A stretch of 24,000 nt of DNA from an uncultured Pseudomonas sp. (GCA_966191535.1 CBIGPF010000017.1:27425-51424); one strand, 5' to 3'; positions 2,966-20,370 are shown, counted from the stretch's first letter. Numbers and translations: made by a program. The notes: a model not told the origin generated them from the letters alone.

Positions 2966-3100
2966 ACGTTCTTTGCGATGGCGCAGGAAGCGCCATCGGT
3001 GCGGTCGCCGCCCGGGAGGCGGCTGCACTAGGGGCCCGGAGGGACCCCGCGCAAGCCACGGCGGTCAGGGACGACCGCCGCGGACTGCACCTCTGACGAA

Positions 3101-13637: not shown

Positions 13638-15254
13638 CTAACGCACCCCGTCGCTGATACCGGCCCAATCCAGGCCGAAGCGCGCCAGGTACTTGCGCAG
13701 GCGGTCGGCGTCGTTGGGGTTCTGCTTCTCCTGGCGCGAGACAGCGAACAGCTGCCGGCCAGCATCAGACAGGTTGCGTGCCTGCCGGCAGACATCGACC
13801 ACCGCTTCCAGCTGCACGCGGTCGAACAGGTCCAGCGCCTCGACGCCCTCTTCCCCCAGCAAGCGATCCAGCAGGCTCGACGTCTGGGTAGCACCCCAGG
13901 AGCGGCGCAGCCGGCCGATCTCCTCCTCCACCAGCACCTCGTCGATCCGTCCACTGTCGGCCAGGGTCGCCATGCGCGTGATGGACGCCGACAGCTCGCG
14001 GAAGTTGCCACTCCACAGCGCCTGCGCCGAGTTGGCGAACGCCAGGTAGCGCGTGCGCGCCTCACGGTTGAAGCGCACCAGCCGCCCTTGCTCGCGAGCG
14101 TGGCGCTCCAGCTCGAAGTCGATGTTCGGCTCGATGTCCTCACGACGCCCAGCCAACCCCGGCAGGTCGAACGTCCAGAGGTTGATGCGGGCGAACAGGT
14201 CCTCGCGGAACAGCCCCTCGGCGACGCGCTCGCGCAGATCGCGATGGGTGCCGGCGATCAGCTGGAAGTCGCTCCCCACCTCGCGGTCCGAGCCCAGCGG
14301 GAAGAAGCGTTTTTCCTCGATGGCCTTGAGTAGCATCGCCTGCTCGTCCAGGCCCAGCTCGCCAATCTCGTCGAGAAACAGCATGCCGCCATCCGCCGCA
14401 CGCAGCAGGCCTTCGCGGGCGTTCTGCGCGCCGGTGAAGGCGCCCTTGATGTGACCGAACAGCGCAGACATGGCGCCGTCGCCGCGCAAGGTCGCGCAGT
14501 TCACCTCGACGAAGCGGCCCTGGAACTGGTGCCGCGCTCGCTTGAGTTCGTAGACGCGGCGGGCCAGGAACGACTTGCCGGCGCCAGTCGGGCCGATCAG
14601 CAGCATCGGCGCGCGGGAGCGCCCGGCGACCCGCTCGATCTGTTCGATGGAGCGGTTGAATTCGGCGTTGCGCGTGGCGATGCCGGACTTGAGGAAGGCC
14701 AGGCTTTCTTCCTGCTCGCGGCGGAAGCGCGTGGCGATACGGTCGTAACGCGACAGATCGAGGTCGATGACCGCGACAGTCCCTTCCGGCTGCCGCGCCT
14801 CGTCCTGGCGCCGCGACGGCGAGGCCTGCACCAGCCGCGCCGGCAGATAGCGCGCCTCGGTGAGGAGGAACCAGCAGATCTGCGCGACGTGGGTCCCGGT
14901 GGTGATGTGCACCAGGTAGTCCTCGTGCTCGGTATCGAAGGCATAACCGCCGACGAAATCATGCAGCGCACCGTAGACCTCCTCGAAGTCCCACGGATTG
15001 CGCAGCGCCATAGGCTGCAGGCGCACCTCGGTCTCCGGCGAGACGAGCCGAACGTCAGCGGCAATGCGCTCGGCCAGCCCGACATCCCGCGCATCCAGCC
15101 CGTGGATCAACTCCAGGCGGTCGACCAGCAAGTCCTGCTGCTGGCACAGGCCGACCGTGGGCCGCCACTTCTGCCAGCGCGCCGCGCCCTTGCCGACGCG
15201 ATCGAGGGTGGAACCGAGGAAGCCGATGGCGACAGTCTTGCGTCCTGCTGGCAT
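13638..15254 (-). CDS. rtcR: Sigma54-dependent transcriptional activator RtcR (N-terminal CARF-like sensor, AAA+ core, C-terminal HTH)
   Basis: 538 aa. Walker A GPTGAGKS, sigma54-contact motif GAFTGA, Walker B LFLDEIGEL. The N-terminus MPAGRKTVAIGFLGSTLD is typical of RtcR rather than a receiver domain. Divergent from an rsr/rtcB/rtcA operon. Confidence 0.92.
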   Translation of the reverse strand: MPAGRKTVAIGFLGSTLDRVGKGAARWQKWRPTVGLCQQQDLLVDRLELIHGLDARDVGLAERIAADVRLVSPETEVRLQPMALRNPWDFEEVYGALHDFVGGYAFDTEHEDYLVHITTGTHVAQICWFLLTEARYLPARLVQASPSRRQDEARQPEGTVAVIDLDLSRYDRIATRFRREQEESLAFLKSGIATRNAEFNRSIEQIERVAGRSRAPMLLIGPTGAGKSFLARRVYELKRARHQFQGRFVEVNCATLRGDGAMSALFGHIKGAFTGAQNAREGLLRAADGGMLFLDEIGELGLDEQAMLLKAIEEKRFFPLGSDREVGSDFQLIAGTHRDLRERVAEGLFREDLFARINLWTFDLPGLAGRREDIEPNIDFELERHAREQGRLVRFNREARTRYLAFANSAQALWSGNFRELSASITRMATLADSGRIDEVLVEEEIGRLRRSWGATQTSSLLDRLLGEEGVEALDLFDRVQLEAVVDVCRQARNLSDAGRQLFAVSRQEKQNPNDADRLRKYLARFGLDWAGISDGVR

Positions 15255-15411: not shown

Positions 15412-15427
15412 TGGCACGCTGCCTGCT
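15412..15427 (+). promoter_or_regulatory. Sigma54 (-24/-12) promoter of the rsr-rtcB-rtcA operon
   Basis: TGGCACGCTGCCTGCT has GG at 15413-15414 and GC at 15425-15426 with canonical spacing (consensus TGGCAC-N5-TTGCW). It is about 40 nt upstream of the rsr ATG and adjacent to the divergent sigma54 activator gene. Confidence 0.8.
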
Positions 15428-15468: not shown

Positions 15469-17019
15469 ATGGCCAACACCCGACTGTTCAACACCCTCGA
15501 TGCCCGCCTGCCGGCCATCGACGCCTGCAACCAGAACGGAGCGGGCGCCTATGCCTACGGCGCACGTCATCAACTGGCGCAGCTGGCAGTCACCGGTTGC
15601 CTGAACCAGACCTACTACACCGATGCCCAGGATCAGCTGGATCGTGTGCTGGCCCTGGCCGGTGAGTTGGATGCCGCCTTCGTGACCCGTACCGCGATCT
15701 ACGCCCGTCAGCAGGGCCACATGAAAGACATGCCGGCATTGCTGGTAGCGGCGCTGGCCGCGCAACGCTCGTCTCTGCTGCCGGTCGCCTTCGCCAAGGT
15801 GATCGACAACGGCAAGATGCTGCGCACCTTCGTGCAGATCCTGCGCAGCGGCGCAACAGGCCGTAAGTCGCTGGGTTCGCAACCCAAGCGGCTGGTGCAG
15901 GACTGGCTGAACACCGCCAGCGAGCGCCACCTGCTGCAGGCCGCCGTAGGTAACCAGCCGTCGCTGGCGGACCTGGTGAAGATGGTCCACCCCAAGCCGA
16001 ACTCGGCCTGGCGTGAAGCCTTCTTTGCCTGGCTGCTCGGCAAGCCGGCAGCCGCCGACGCCCTGCCGCCGCTGACGCGGGACCTGCTGGCCTTCCGCAG
16101 CGGCGCCAGCGATGCCCTGCCGGATGTGCCGCACCTGCTGCTGGGCGACCGTCAGTTGTCTGCACAGCAATGGGCTGAGCTGGGTCGTCGCATGGGCTGG
16201 CACGCGTTGCGGATGAACCTGAACACCCTGGCACGCCACGGTGCCCTGTCCTTGCCGGGCGTGGCGGATGAGCTGGCAGGCCGGCTAGCCGATGCGCAGG
16301 CAGTGGCAAAGGCGCGGGTCTACCCGTACCAGTTGCTGGCGGCCTATCGCATGGCCGGCGCGGACGTGCCGCAGGTCATCCGTAACGCCTTGCAGGACGC
16401 CCTGGAGCATTCGCTGCAGAACGTCCCGGCGCTGAAAGGTTCGGTGGTTGTGTGCCCGGACGTGTCCGGCTCCATGGGCAGCCCGGTGACGGGTTACCGC
16501 CAGGGAGCGACGACCGCGGTGCGCTGCATCGACGTCGCGGCCCTGGTAGCAGCGGCGATCCTACGCCAGCAGCCACTGGCACGGGTAATGCCGTTCGAGC
16601 GCGACGTGGTGAACGTGCAGCTCAACCCGCGTGACAGCGTGATGAGCAACGCCGAAAAACTGGCTGCCATCGGCGGCGGCGGCACCAACTGCTCCGCGCC
16701 GCTGGCACGGCTGGCTGACGAGCGCGCCAAGGTGGATACGCTGATCCTGGTTTCGGACAACGAATCCTGGATCGATGGAAAGCGCCACGGCGCCACACAG
16801 ACGCTGCACCAGTGGGAGCGCATCAAACGCGTCAACCCGCAGGCCCGGATGATCTGCATCGACATCCAGCCTTACGGCACGACGCAGGCGAAGGATCGCC
16901 AAGACATCCTCAACGTCGGTGGTTTTGGCGATGCGGTGTTCGATGTGATGGCGCAGTTCGCCGACGGTCGTTACGACGCCCGGCACTGGGTACAGTTGAT
17001 TGAGTCGATGGAGATCTGA
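15469..17019 (+). CDS. rsr: Ro60-related protein Rsr (TROVE domain + vWA/MIDAS domain)
   Basis: 516 aa. The N-terminal two-thirds is helical-repeat (TROVE-like: YAYGARHQLAQLAVTGCLNQTYY...MVHPKP). The C-terminal vWA domain has the MIDAS motif VCPDVSGSMGS and later LILVSDNES. The context (rtcR, Y-RNA-like RNAs, rtcB, rtcA) matches the Salmonella rsr locus. Confidence 0.88.
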   Translation: MANTRLFNTLDARLPAIDACNQNGAGAYAYGARHQLAQLAVTGCLNQTYYTDAQDQLDRVLALAGELDAAFVTRTAIYARQQGHMKDMPALLVAALAAQRSSLLPVAFAKVIDNGKMLRTFVQILRSGATGRKSLGSQPKRLVQDWLNTASERHLLQAAVGNQPSLADLVKMVHPKPNSAWREAFFAWLLGKPAAADALPPLTRDLLAFRSGASDALPDVPHLLLGDRQLSAQQWAELGRRMGWHALRMNLNTLARHGALSLPGVADELAGRLADAQAVAKARVYPYQLLAAYRMAGADVPQVIRNALQDALEHSLQNVPALKGSVVVCPDVSGSMGSPVTGYRQGATTAVRCIDVAALVAAAILRQQPLARVMPFERDVVNVQLNPRDSVMSNAEKLAAIGGGGTNCSAPLARLADERAKVDTLILVSDNESWIDGKRHGATQTLHQWERIKRVNPQARMICIDIQPYGTTQAKDRQDILNVGGFGDAVFDVMAQFADGRYDARHWVQLIESMEI

Positions 17020-17024
17020 GAAGT

Positions 17025-17052
17025 CGTGCTCCGCCAATGAGGGCGGAGCACG
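17025..17052 (+). other. Perfect 11-bp hairpin immediately after the rsr stop (no U-tract)
   Basis: CGTGCTCCGCC (17025-17035), loop AATGAG, GGCGGAGCACG (17042-17052). It starts 6 nt after the TGA. It is followed by CAACGAAUUG, so it is not a canonical terminator. Confidence 0.7.
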
Positions 17053-17064
17053 CAACGAATTGAA

Positions 17065-17187
17065 TTTCGCGGCGTCATGAATGCCGTCGGGACTACAACG
17101 GACAAGTCCAGGCCGGCACTGCCGGCACGAGCCTTCCGCATCACGCTTGCGTGAAGTCCCGGCGACCCTTGTCATGACGAAGCGAGG
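17065..17187 (+). ncRNA. Y-RNA-like module 0 (YrlB-like: Y-type stem/loop/stem, no tRNA-like elements)
   Basis: S1 GUCAUGA (17074-17080) pairs with UCAUGAC (17172-17178) and is extended by UUUCGC:GCGAGG after a 2x2 loop. Internal loop AUGCC / GACCCUUG. S2 GUCGGGACU (17086-17094) pairs with AGUCCCGGC (17155-17163). The interior has hairpins GCCGGC-ACU-GCCGGC (17112-17126) and UCACGC-UU-GCGUGA (17141-17154). Confidence 0.6.
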
Positions 17188-17271
17188 CACGAATGCCGAC
17201 AGGTGTACAGGGTTCAGCTGGTTCGATTCCAGCCCGCAGCGATGCGGATCACTTGTCTCCCTTGTCGTGCC
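17186..17271 (+). ncRNA. Y-RNA-like module 1 (Y-type stems + T-arm/acceptor minihelix, no D arm)
   Basis: S1 GGCACGA (17186-17192) pairs with UCGUGCC (17265-17271). Loop AUGCC / UCCCUUG. S2 GACAGGUG (17198-17205) pairs with CACUUGUC (17250-17257). T arm GCUGG-UUCGAUU-CCAGC (17217-17233). Acceptor-like hairpin CCGCA-GCGA-UGCGG (17234-17247). Confidence 0.6.
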
Positions 17272-17289
17272 ACCCTTGTTACAGCGTTA

Positions 17290-17421
17290 TGCGACGAATG
17301 CCGGTGGAACTACACCCTTCCACGGTCGAGATACGGGTTCGAGTCCCGTCGGCTCCACTATCAGGGGGCCGTAGTTCAATGGCAGAACACGAAAATACGT
17401 TTCACCATCCTTGTCGTCGCA
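17290..17421 (+). ncRNA. YrlA-like Y RNA module 2 (permuted tRNA-like domain)
   Basis: S1 GCGACGA (17291-17297) pairs with UCGUCGC (17414-17420). Loop AUGCC / AUCCUUG. S2 GGUGGAA (17303-17309) pairs with UUUCACC (17400-17406). T arm ACGGG-UUCGAGU-CCCGU (17333-17349). Acceptor CGGCUCC (17350-17356) pairs with GGGGCCG (17365-17371) and is closed by a loop. Then UA, then D arm GUUC-AAUGGCA-GAAC (17374-17388). Confidence 0.7.
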
Positions 17422-17449
17422 CCTATTCACCCCGCCAGGCCGGCGGGCA

Positions 17450-17557
17450 GGCAACGAATGCCTGGGGCAGTACATCGGGTCGCGGGTTCGAACCCCGCTC
17501 CGCTCGCGCGGGTAGCTCAGTCGGTAGAGCAGATCTGTCCCTCAACTCGTCGTTGCC
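17450..17557 (+). ncRNA. YrlA-like Y RNA module 3 (permuted tRNA-like domain)
   Basis: S1 GGCAACGA (17450-17457) pairs with UCGUUGCC (17550-17557). Loop AUGCC(U) / UCAACUCG. S2 GGGGCAG (17464-17470) pairs with CUGUCCC (17535-17541). T arm GCGGG-UUCGAAC-CCCGC (17482-17498). Acceptor UCCGC-UCGC-GCGGG (17499-17512). Then UA, then D arm GCUC-AGUCGGUA-GAGC (17515-17530). Confidence 0.72.
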
Positions 17558-17582
17558 CCGGCCACCCATGAATTTTCGGCAT

Positions 17583-17710
17583 TGCAGTGGCGAATGCCGG
17601 TGGGACTACAGGACGGAAAGGTTGCGGGTTCGACTCCCGTCGGCTCCCTGGAGTCGTAGCTCAACCGGATAGAGCGCGCCGCATGTTTCACCACAACTCG
17701 TCGCCACGCA
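17583..17710 (+). ncRNA. YrlA-like Y RNA module 4 (permuted tRNA-like domain)
   Basis: S1 GUGGCGA (17587-17593) pairs with UCGCCAC (17701-17707), extended by UGC:GCA across a bulged A. Loop AUGCC / ACAACUCG. S2 GGUGGGA (17599-17605) pairs with UUUCACC (17686-17692). T arm GCGGG-UUCGACU-CCCGU (17624-17640). Acceptor CGGCUC(C)...(G)GAGUCG (17641-17656). Then UA, then D arm GCUC-AACCGGAUA-GAGC (17659-17675). The module ends 25 nt before the rtcB ATG. Confidence 0.72.
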
Positions 17711-17735
17711 GGACCAGTGATACAGGAAAACAGAC

Positions 17736-18962
17736 ATGCAAACGAAAACCTTCCAACTGCTGGAAGTCGCCAACGGCAAACCGATCAAGCTCTGGACCCA
17801 GGGCGTGCCGGTGGAAGACGACGCCAGGCAGCAACTGATGAATACCGCGAAGATGCCCTTCATCTTCAAGCACCTGGCCGTGATGCCGGACGTGCACCTG
17901 GGCAAGGGGTCGACCATCGGCAGCGTGATTCCCACCAAGGGCGCCATCATCCCGGCGGCCGTGGGCGTGGATATCGGCTGCGGGATGATCGCCGCGCGCA
18001 CCTCGCTGGTGGCCTCCGACCTGCCGGACAACCTGCACGGCCTGCGAACCGCCATCGAGAAAGCCGTGCCCCACGGGCGCAGCAACACCCGGGCAGGCCG
18101 CGATAAAGGCGCCTGGGAAAACGTGCCCGAGCATGCCGACGACGCCTGGCGCGCACTGGCCGGCCGCTTCAAGGTGATTACCGACAAGCACCCGAAACTG
18201 GAGAAGACCAACAACCGCAAGCACCTGGGAACCCTCGGTACCGGCAACCACTTCATCGAGGTCTGCCTCGACGAAGCGGACCGCGTCTGGTTCATGCTGC
18301 ACAGCGGCTCGCGCGGCGTGGGCAACGCCATCGGCAACCTGTTCATCGAACTGGCCCAGGCCGATATGCGCCAGCACATCGCCAACCTGCCGGACCGTGA
18401 CCTGGCCTACTTCGAGGAAGGCAGCCAGCACTTCGACGACTACGTGGAGGCCGTGGACTGGGCCCAGGACTTCGCCCGGCAGAACCGCGAGCTGATGATG
18501 CACTCGGTGATCGCGGCGGCGCGGCAGATCATCCGCAAGCCGTTCGAAGCGAGCCTGGAAGCGGTGAACTGCCACCACAACTACGTGCAGAAGGAACGCC
18601 ACTTCGGCGAAGAGGTACTGGTGACGCGCAAAGGCGCGGTGTCTGCGCAGAAGGGTCAGCTCGGCATCATTCCGGGATCGATGGGCGCACGCAGCTTCAT
18701 CGTTCGTGGCCTGGGCAACGAGGAAGCCTTCTGCTCGTGCAGCCACGGTGCCGGTCGCACCATGAGCCGCACCAAGGCGAAGAAGCTGTTCAGCGTCGAA
18801 GACCAGATTCGCGCCACCGCCCACGTCGAATGCCGCAAGGACGCCGACGTGATCGACGAGATCCCGATGGCCTACAAGGACATCGACGCCGTGATGGACG
18901 CCCAGCGCGAGCTGGTGGAAGTACTGCATACCCTGCGCCAGGTGGTCTGCGTGAAAGGATGA
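17736..18962 (+). CDS. rtcB: RNA-splicing ligase RtcB (3'-phosphate/5'-hydroxyl RNA ligase)
   Basis: 408 aa. Family motifs PDVHLGKGSTIGSV, GVDIGCGM, GTLGTGNHFIE, HSGSRGVGN, NCHHNY and SCSHGAGR (the site of the guanylylated His). AGGAAA SD 6 nt upstream. Confidence 0.95.
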   Translation: MQTKTFQLLEVANGKPIKLWTQGVPVEDDARQQLMNTAKMPFIFKHLAVMPDVHLGKGSTIGSVIPTKGAIIPAAVGVDIGCGMIAARTSLVASDLPDNLHGLRTAIEKAVPHGRSNTRAGRDKGAWENVPEHADDAWRALAGRFKVITDKHPKLEKTNNRKHLGTLGTGNHFIEVCLDEADRVWFMLHSGSRGVGNAIGNLFIELAQADMRQHIANLPDRDLAYFEEGSQHFDDYVEAVDWAQDFARQNRELMMHSVIAAARQIIRKPFEASLEAVNCHHNYVQKERHFGEEVLVTRKGAVSAQKGQLGIIPGSMGARSFIVRGLGNEEAFCSCSHGAGRTMSRTKAKKLFSVEDQIRATAHVECRKDADVIDEIPMAYKDIDAVMDAQRELVEVLHTLRQVVCVKG

Positions 18963-18971
18963 GGTGAAGAC

Positions 18972-19550
18972 ATGCTGCAACCCATGGAAAACCAGCGCAT
19001 GCAGGAACTGCGCAGCCGCCTGGAACAGGAACGCTGCGTCTTCGACTTCCGCGTGCTGACACTCGACCCGACCGCCACGCCCGGCGAGGCGGAACATCGC
19101 CTGGCGTTGCAGCTGCTATTCGAATCCATCCAGGAACGCGCACGCAAGTGGCAGGCGGACGTCATCGCCCGCCACCCGCAATACGCCACCCATGAATGGG
19201 CGGACCTGACGCCGGACCTGGCCAGGGCCCGCCCGCAGGCACTCGGTATCGAGGCGGTGCGCGAGCTGGGCCGCGACGACGGCCCGCTGTGCCGCGCCTT
19301 CCGCGACCCGCCCTACGGCACCCAGCTGCAGATCGCGGATTTCCGCGAATGGCTGCAGGCGCTGCGGCTGAATCCGGACGAAGGCCTGCAGGTGCTCGAC
19401 TGGGTCGGCGACGGCGATGCCGAGCCGCACCGCAGCAACTGGAGCTGCTACTTCGACGATGGCAAGGAATGGTGGGGCATCTGGTGCCTCACCCTGTACA
19501 ACCCGCGACGACGAACATTGTCCGCGCTGGCCGCCAGCGCGACGGACTGA
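18972..19550 (+). CDS. Hypothetical protein (192 aa) embedded in the rtc operon
   Basis: ORF MLQPMENQRMQELRSRLEQERCVFDF...WSCYFDDGKEWWGIWCLTLYNPRRR.... GAGGTG SD 6 nt upstream. It starts 9 nt after the rtcB stop. No family recognised. Confidence 0.6.
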   Translation: MLQPMENQRMQELRSRLEQERCVFDFRVLTLDPTATPGEAEHRLALQLLFESIQERARKWQADVIARHPQYATHEWADLTPDLARARPQALGIEAVRELGRDDGPLCRAFRDPPYGTQLQIADFREWLQALRLNPDEGLQVLDWVGDGDAEPHRSNWSCYFDDGKEWWGIWCLTLYNPRRRTLSALAASATD

Positions 19551-19569
19551 AAGAACAAGGAATGCCCCC

Positions 19570-20370
19570 ATGAACAGGGACGAACGACATCCGCTGCCCG
19601 CCGCCATGCGCGAACGGGTACTGGAGGAACTGGAAAGACTGGAACAGGAGCGCGGCGTCACCGTGCTCTACGCATGTGAATCCGGCAGCCGCGCCTGGGG
19701 CTTCGCCTCACCGGACAGCGACTACGACGTGCGCTTCGTCTACGTGCACCAGCCGGACTGGTACCTGCGCGTGGAAGAACCGCGCGACGTGCTGGAGCGC
19801 CCATTGACCGACGAGCTGGACCTTAGTGGCTGGGAGCTGCGCAAGACGCTGCGACTGCTGCGCAAATCCAACCCGACGCTGCTGGAGTGGCTGGACTCGC
19901 CGCTGGTGTACCGCAGCGAACCGGCAGCGACCGGAGGCCTGCGCCAGCTGGCGCGGGACTTCTACTCGCCCGCCGCGGCAAGGGCGCACTACCTGTCGAT
20001 GGCGAAGAAGAACTTCCGTGGCTATCTGCAGGGCGAAGCGGTTCGCTACAAGAAGTACCTCTACGTGCTGCGCCCGCTGTTGGCAGTGCGCTGGATCGAC
20101 CTGGGCCTCGGCATGCCGCCGATGGTCTTCGAGACGCTGATGCAAGCGACCCTCGACGACGCCACACAACGCGCCGAGGTCGAGGAACTGCTGGTACTCA
20201 AGCGCCAGGCGGTCGAGGCCGAATACGGTCCGGCGCGCCCAGCCCTGCACCGATTGATCGAGGGAGAACTGCAACGCGTGGAAGCCCTTGGCGCTCCACG
20301 TGGCGGCTGCCACGACACGGAGCGCCTGGACCGTTTCCTGCGCGAGCAGGTAAGGAAATACGCCAGATGA
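19570..20370 (+). CDS. Pol-beta-superfamily nucleotidyltransferase (RNA-ligase-associated RlaP-like, by recollection)
   Basis: 266 aa from MNRDERHPLPAAMRERV.... NTase signature YACESGSRAWGFASPDSDYDVRFVY (G-S ... DxD). Its stop TGA (20368-20370) overlaps the rtcA ATG (20367-20369). The ORF-track start at 19417 was rejected because it overlaps orf192 and has an Arg/Thr-rich extension. Confidence 0.72.
   Translation: MNRDERHPLPAAMRERVLEELERLEQERGVTVLYACESGSRAWGFASPDSDYDVRFVYVHQPDWYLRVEEPRDVLERPLTDELDLSGWELRKTLRLLRKSNPTLLEWLDSPLVYRSEPAATGGLRQLARDFYSPAAARAHYLSMAKKNFRGYLQGEAVRYKKYLYVLRPLLAVRWIDLGLGMPPMVFETLMQATLDDATQRAEVEELLVLKRQAVEAEYGPARPALHRLIEGELQRVEALGAPRGGCHDTERLDRFLREQVRKYAR

Follow-up and report, generated by a model that had tools for sequence, protein, structure and literature searches.

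The window analysed here is a 24,000-nt stretch of DNA from an uncultured Pseudomonas sp. (GCA_966191535.1, CBIGPF010000017.1:27425-51424), with positions counted from its first letter. It contains an RNA-repair operon in which rsr and rtcB flank a long gap:

13638-15254, minus strand: rtcR, sigma-54 enhancer-binding activator, divergent from rsr (Pfam RtcR, 5.5e-85; Sigma54_activat, 2.9e-49)
15412-15427, plus strand: putative sigma-54 type promoter TGGCAC-GCTGC-CTGCT (pattern match and direct reading)
15469-17019, plus strand: rsr, Ro60 orthologue (Pfam vWA_Ro60, PF25045, 7.6e-20; TROVE, PF05731, 1.4e-6)
17020-17735: rsr-rtcB gap, 716 nt from rsr stop to rtcB start
17026-17051, plus strand: 10-bp GC-rich hairpin without U tract, directly 3' of the rsr stop (from folding)
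17736-18962, plus strand: rtcB, RNA ligase (Pfam RtcB, 5.3e-133)
18972-19550, plus strand: 192-aa ORF of no family, between rtcB and rlaP
Downstream of the 192-aa ORF, plus strand: rlaP, then rtcA

The Pfam matches confirm both flanking genes and thereby the 716-nt gap described in the original prediction. Rsr carries the TROVE and vWA domains of a Ro60/Rsr partner and falls into a common 90% cluster with P. delhiensis WP_089391119.1, the next relatives being only 77% identical. The sigma-54 type promoter (TGGCAC-N5-CTGCT) is separated by 42 nt from the rsr ATG downstream and, judged by the RtcR-controlled operons known from E. coli and Salmonella (PMC7790460), would work as a promoter. A search for sigma-70-like promoters and intrinsic terminators inside the array of modules described below found none. 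The hairpin at 17026-17051 has counterparts of other sequence at the same site after the rsr stop in related loci (L001, L002, L004, L006, L007, and L022) and could be a processing or 3'-end-protecting element of the rsr mRNA.

Downstream of rtcB, the 192-aa ORF matches neither a Pfam nor an NCBIfam family. P. delhiensis lacks it and has rlaP directly after rtcB; relative to that locus (L081), window positions 18963-19555 are an insertion. Homologues lie just 3' of rtcB in L031 and L001 (65-68% identity) and, more distantly related, in L024, L022, L076, L007, L078, and L006 (37-43%), so that the ORF is apparently an uncharacterised accessory gene that recurs in RNA-repair operons of this kind. 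The mechanically called rlaP ORF (19417-20370, plus strand) probably starts too early, as the P. delhiensis RlaP start MNREERHPLP corresponds to a window ATG at about 19570 (MNRDERHPLP). Elsewhere in the window, the small RNA RsmW (RF02809) is found on the plus strand at 2972-3092 with 77.7 bits, exceeding its gathering score of 52.

The gap holds five tandem modules, each built of a basal stem S1, an internal loop with AUGCC on its 5' side, a second stem S2, and UACA. They are given below with their covariance-model matches, either to Rfam YrlA (RF02553) or to R1, a model made from 39 short (54-70 nt) modules taken from other genomes only.

17074-17178, plus strand: module 1; S1 GUCAUGA (17074-17080)/UCAUGAC (17172-17178); S2 GUCGGGACU/AGUCCCGGC; apical domain of two hairpins, T-arm lost; R1 match at 17076-17176, 27.8 bits, E 2e-6
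17186-17271, plus strand: module 2, YrlB-like Y RNA; S1 GGCACGA (17186-17192)/UCGUGCC (17265-17271); S2, T-arm-like hairpin CUGGUUCGAUUCCAG, second hairpin; R1 match at 17185-17272, 28.4 bits, E 1.3e-6
17291-17420, plus strand: module 3, YrlA-type; S1 GCGACGA (17291-17297)/UCGUCGC (17414-17420); T-arm, 7-bp acceptor-like stem CGGCUCC/GGGGCCG, UA dinucleotide, D-arm; YrlA match at 17291-17423, 57.3 bits, E 3.1e-12
17450-17557, plus strand: module 4, YrlA-type; S1 GGCAACGA (17450-17457)/UCGUUGCC (17550-17557); short acceptor-like stem; YrlA match at 17451-17559, 68.4 bits, E 2e-15
17587-17707, plus strand: module 5, YrlA-type; S1 GUGGCGA (17587-17593)/UCGCCAC (17701-17707); 6-bp acceptor-like stem; YrlA match at 17587-17710, 79.4 bits, E 3.7e-17

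All stems, loops, and coordinates quoted in the original prediction are present in the sequence, and the five-module architecture it described is borne out feature by feature. AUGCC is unchanged in all five modules and UACA follows S2 in each; on the 3' side of the loop, modules 1-3 share (C)CCUUG, where modules 4-5 have CAACUCG. The quoted S2 pairs form in five out of five cases if G-U pairs are allowed. Searched on both strands of the 24 kb, the pattern GAATGCC-N7-10-TACA matches five times, always on the plus strand of the gap, compared to an expected count of 0.00 (100 shuffles). Similarly, a first detector, which combines the GAATG[CT] motif, 6-bp S1 pairing, and T.G ahead of the S1 3' strand, returns exactly five modules from the window and none on the minus strand. 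Folded as single sequences, modules 2, 4, and 5 adopt S1 and S2 as proposed; the z-scores of the single-sequence folds are modest (-2.2 to 0.0). For module 2, the minimum-energy fold is the proposed structure, and folding of the whole 716 nt again yields modules 1 and 2 as separate units.

The covariance-model scan that had been proposed as a check on the five modules separates two groups. Modules 3-5 match YrlA at 57-79 bits, with YrlA E-values from 3e-12 to 1e-18. Relative to the YrlA gathering score of 69 bits, module 5 lies above, module 4 just below, and module 3 below, so that annotation at the Rfam gathering threshold picks up a single module of the five here, and one or two at each locus of the relatives. 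Neither module 1 nor module 2 matches YrlA in the Rfam search of the window; this search matched module 1 to no family and gave no metazoan Y RNA match. Module 2 reaches 27.2 bits (E 0.004) against YrlB (RF02565), short of the gathering score of 97 bits, and its L007 orthologue reaches 18.9 bits. Hence, module 2 has a YrlB-like architecture, yet is not a member of Rfam YrlB as defined. With filters off, modules 2 and 1 are the two best matches of R1 in the 24-kb window, and modules 5, 4, and 3 are also within the top six.

The 5' strand of the YrlA Ro60-binding stem carries the motif GNCGAAN0-1G (Chen et al. 2014). Module 3 (GACGAAUG) and module 5 (GGCGAAUG) conform to this motif, while its first G is missing from module 4 (AACGAAUG) and module 2 (CACGAAUG). 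In module 1 (CAUGAAUG), U replaces the C and the partner base compensates, giving UGA where the other modules have CGA. The cmscan alignments further resolve the degree of tRNA mimicry: module 1 has neither T- nor D-arm, module 2 has a T-arm only (CUGGUUCGAUUCCAG), and modules 3-5 combine T-arm, acceptor-like stem, and D-arm. The YrlA arrangement of a T-arm 5' of the D-arm, an acceptor-like stem between them, and UA before the D stem is found in modules 3-5 and not in modules 1-2. All five modules lie on the plus strand 55-690 nt 3' of the rsr stop, within the <4 kb from rsr, on the same strand, that delimits YrlA genes. The YrlA matches of modules 3-5, together with the independent model R1 for modules 1-2, support the proposed identity of all five as candidate Y RNA-like structured RNA genes.

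Scanning species-representative genomes with an Rsr alignment yielded 80 loci, nearly all of which show the order rtcR (minus), rsr (plus), gap, rtcB (plus). In 68 of the 80, the pattern GAATGCC-N7-10-TACA is confined to the plus strand of the rsr-rtcB gap. Because S1 pairing is a criterion of the first detector, S1 counts on the sets derived with it are biased. S2, which is not among its criteria, is fully paired (7/7) in 82.5% of 263 modules, against 15.7% when 5' and 3' strands are combined across loci, and these modules hold 77 distinct S2 5' strands. Among the 39 short modules, 95.3% of cells are paired versus 74.3% in shuffles and 33-57% in slid controls; both sides change in 14 of 16 pairs, a level reached in 0 of 500 shuffles. 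The module 2 family (19 sequences, from Pseudomonas to Ralstonia and Chitinimonas) shows compensatory changes in 12 of 22 predicted pairs, including the T-arm-like hairpin and the second hairpin. Per-position tables likewise display compensated changes in S1 and S2, exemplified by an A-U pair in S1 of module 4 that is G-C in the orthologues. The array of P. delhiensis (L081, GCA_900187975.1), 93% identical to the window, carries double compensatory changes in S2 and the T-arm of module 2. Across the 80 related rsr loci, the stems thus covary strongly, and the S1 and S2 pairs are compensated rather than disrupted, so that the refuting condition named in the original prediction turns out in its favour. 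The five pattern matches against 0.00 expected exclude chance.

In contrast, the view that five copies form an uncharacterised expansion does not hold. A relaxed detector, whose matches fall mainly in the gaps (about 290, against 29 on the rest of the plus strands and 12 on the minus strands in total), allowed us to count modules at 73 rsr-rtcB loci. One module is present at 1 locus, two at 12, three at 21, four at 20, five at 17, and six at 2; arrays of two to six are the rule. P. delhiensis has five modules in this same order. So do other close relatives, namely Metapseudomonas otitidis, five species of Ectopseudomonas, and Pseudomonas sp. L007, L013, and L022, in which a short first module is followed by a T-arm-only module of ~86 nt and YrlA-type modules of ~127, ~104, and ~115 nt. 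Thus, the five-module cassette is ancestral rather than a special expansion, arrays of 2-6 modules being usual for this operon in relatives.

Each position keeps its own S1, namely GGCACGA (position 2), GCGACGA (3), GCAGCGA/GCAACGA (4), and CCGGCGA/GUGGCGA (5), with the differences compensated. YrlA modules at the same position are on average 83% identical across genomes, whereas those at different positions within one genome average 67%; module 3, for instance, has 89-91% identity with its counterparts at position 3 in L001 and L002. By these identities, the paralogs group by position and not by genome, and are therefore old.

The first position is the most variable. In P. delhiensis, the apical domain of module 1 contains a T-arm-like hairpin (GCAGGUUCGAGCCCUGC), the 5' half of which is gone from the window through a 12-13-nt deletion. 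Since this genome's deletion hit a T-arm that P. delhiensis keeps, the absence of mimicry in module 1 is a recent loss. Consequently, the gradient of tRNA mimicry noted earlier is present in the sequence, but its module 1 end reflects a recent deletion and not a designed grade. S1 and S2 of module 1 are intact despite the loss of the T-arm. The module aligns with that of P. delhiensis and with the first-position modules of L020, L026, and L029. The P. delhiensis-type architecture, in which S1 without CGA is followed by S2, a hairpin, the T-arm, and a second hairpin, also occurs at first position in Chitinimonas, Uliginosibacterium, and a Rhodocyclaceae MAG, while other Pseudomonas species have a 54-58-nt version there. 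As judged from the first modules of the 80 loci, "mini" Y RNA modules of 54-70 nt are common at the array start in Pseudomonas, Burkholderiales, and Verrucomicrobia. They consist of S1, the AUGCC loop, S2 (GGUGGGAC), a ACUACAUCC-type loop, YUUG, and the S1 3' strand, and have no Rfam match at E up to 1. That the apical insertion of module 1 comes from a repeat or a mobile element was rejected, nothing similar being found in the window or the 80 loci, and a metagenome scan with the 5' half of module 1 gave 0 matches.

Its apical domain differs by 12-nt and 3-nt indels from a genome 93% identical to this one (P. delhiensis), and such fast change means that module 1 may be decaying. Extended to module 2, this would leave only the YrlA-type modules 3-5 functional and make modules 1-2 decaying duplication relics. 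The lack of the CGA of the GNCGAA motif in module 1, the deletion of its T-arm, with indels at only 7% overall divergence, and the failure of both modules to reach any Rfam threshold point in this direction. We nevertheless consider such a relic state unlikely, as modules 1 and 2 retain complete S1/S2 pairing and the invariant loops, are the top two matches of an independent covariance model, and belong to classes that recur at the same array positions in Pseudomonadaceae and Betaproteobacteria with compensatory changes.

It is more improbable still that the array acts mainly in cis, as a structured spacer for processing, stability, or the rsr/rtcB expression ratio, rather than through trans-acting RNPs. 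Its position within the operon, without promoter or terminator of its own, the conserved hairpin directly 3' of the rsr stop, and the correlation between gap length and module number (r = 0.61) would suit a spacer. However, the conserved parts are the Ro60-binding stem and the tRNA-like domains, neither of which a spacer needs, distinct paralogs are each kept over long divergence, and the orthologues in Salmonella and M. smegmatis accumulate bound to Rsr (PMC4201824).

A relic of a tandem tRNA gene array or a protein-coding region can practically be dismissed: although weak Rfam tRNA matches bridge adjacent modules in relatives, the GC-rich region contains long ORFs (one of 159 aa at 17193-17672), and a gene is called over the array in P. 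delhiensis GCA_900187975.1, ARAGORN finds 0 tRNA genes in the window, ORF length, frame, and strand vary among close relatives, the called gene has no Pfam family, and substitutions track base-pairing instead of codon structure. ORFs of 159, 122, and 97 aa were rejected as coding for the same reason of differing length, frame, and strand, and tRNA identity was rejected because, beside the ARAGORN result, only partial sub-threshold tmRNA and tRNA-like matches were obtained. The call in P. delhiensis, a 217-aa gene at 4113-4766 of L081, is most likely a mis-annotation. The weak tRNA matches (L002 5846-5984; L004 5845-5968; L062 5710-5831; L007 5842-5982 and 5985-6121) extend from the D-arm of a YrlA module into the T-arm of the module after it. 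Hence, a tandem YrlA array in shifted register resembles tandem tRNAs, which fits the dimeric-tRNA origin model of YrlA cited in bioRxiv 10.1101/312249. Actual tRNA genes, 13 in number, lie upstream of rtcR at L066 (4-1557), a proteobacterial MAG whose rsr-rtcB gap contains five Y RNA modules.

With good confidence, we therefore favour an ordered cassette of five Y RNA genes in the rsr-rtcB gap that would be transcribed, excised, and bound by Rsr. As part of this explanation, position 1 would represent the first-position class that lost its T-arm in this genome, position 2 a YrlB-like RNA with a T-arm only, and positions 3-5 three old tRNA-mimicking YrlA paralogs. RtcR would activate the sigma-54 promoter 5' of rsr, giving a single transcript of rsr, the five modules, rtcB, and the downstream genes, from which endonucleases would cut out each module as an RNA of about 85-130 nt. 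Rsr would bind and stabilise these RNAs via the S1/AUGCC-loop/S2 element, with (C/U)GAAUGC on the 5' and YUUG-UC on the 3' side. The apical domains would then offer distinct faces to partners, that is three tRNA-like heads, one T-arm-only head, and one without T-arm; partner proteins could include PNPase or other tRNA-binding proteins. Structures, family relations, covariation, cassette conservation, and operon context are observed in the window and its relatives; co-transcription, excision, Rsr binding, and head presentation are inferred from Salmonella, M. smegmatis, and Deinococcus (PMC4201824; PMC7790460; bioRxiv 10.1101/312249). Several Rsr RNPs with different tethered partners are plausible. 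The acceptor-like stem of module 3, 7 bp long with A-C after it, suggests by analogy with M. smegmatis YrlA that RNase P could cleave this RNA.

YrlA and loci with several Y RNAs are already known, and the array is a fine illustration of an RNA type described before. In the literature searched, we found no description of ordered arrays of 3-6 modules or of two non-Rfam classes, although Supplementary Table S1 of Chen et al. 2014 may tabulate multi-copy arrays. The two classes absent from Rfam at threshold are the 54-70-nt mini/first-position modules and the T-arm-only GUGUACAUC modules. A broader proposal, which we put forward tentatively and hold to be somewhat less probable than its opposite, is that the rsr-rtcB operons of Pseudomonadaceae hold a conserved cassette in which distinct Y RNA classes, at most five or six, follow one another in fixed order, each forming a separate Rsr RNP, with variations in many Beta- and Alphaproteobacteria and Verrucomicrobia. 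If each class is indeed kept for its own Rsr RNP (gate-only, T-arm-only, and three different tRNA mimics), not one but several specialised Ro60 particles, a small family, would come from the operon, which bears on the function of bacterial Ro60-Y RNA particles in RtcB RNA-repair operons. Genetically tractable Pseudomonas species carry an ordered set of five distinct, anciently kept Y RNAs where standard Rfam annotation gives one or two per locus. With every class open to deletion and every RNP to pull-down, this provides a concrete way into the question of why bacteria maintain more than one Y RNA. Additionally, the annotation of the 217-aa "gene" over the array in the P. delhiensis assembly is corrected.

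The gene layout is that of the RtcR-controlled rsr-Y RNA-rtcB operon of Salmonella, with rsr-yrlBA-rtcBA as precedent (PMC7790460); the two Y RNAs of Salmonella are at the low end of the two to six that are the rule in the 73 loci. YrlA (RF02553) is a tRNA-mimicking Y RNA of Salmonella Typhimurium, M. smegmatis, and >250 species (PMC4201824; bioRxiv 10.1101/312249). Chen et al. 2014 reported 355 YrlA sequences from 254 bacteria and 22 phages (276 genomes) and tabulated all copies <4 kb from rsr (PMC4201824); with 355 YrlAs in 276 genomes, some loci with more than one copy must already have been seen. Modules 3-5 resemble YrlA in the basal stem with CGAAUGC on the 5' strand, in the T-arm, acceptor-like stem, UA, and D-arm in this order, and in their location directly 3' of rsr, on the same strand, inside the RtcR-controlled operon. 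They differ in that three anciently diverged tandem paralogs stand here where Salmonella has one, with module 5 alone reaching the Rfam YrlA gathering score. The acceptor-like stem of module 3, 7 bp and then A-C, is that of M. smegmatis YrlA, whereas Salmonella YrlA has 6 bp.

Salmonella (RF02565) and M. smegmatis have a second Y RNA bound by Rsr, the smaller YrlB. It shares with module 2 the Ro60-binding stem and a T-arm-like hairpin without D-arm, and the position of module 2 on the 5' side of the YrlA-type modules repeats the yrlB-yrlA order of Salmonella. In contrast to YrlB, with 27 bits against a gathering score of 97, module 2 belongs to a separate conserved subfamily that is marked by GUGUACAUC together with a second hairpin and occurs in Pseudomonas, Chitinimonas, Ralstonia, and Uliginosibacterium. 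In Deinococcus radiodurans, rsr has the RNAs on its upstream side, and the tRNA-like elements within them follow another arrangement. Nevertheless, Yrn1/Yrn2 of this bacterium and the metazoan Y RNAs likewise occur as several Y RNAs beside a Ro60 gene, each combining a basal Ro60-binding helix with a variable effector end, and the 54-70-nt short modules of the relatives amount to little beyond this helix.
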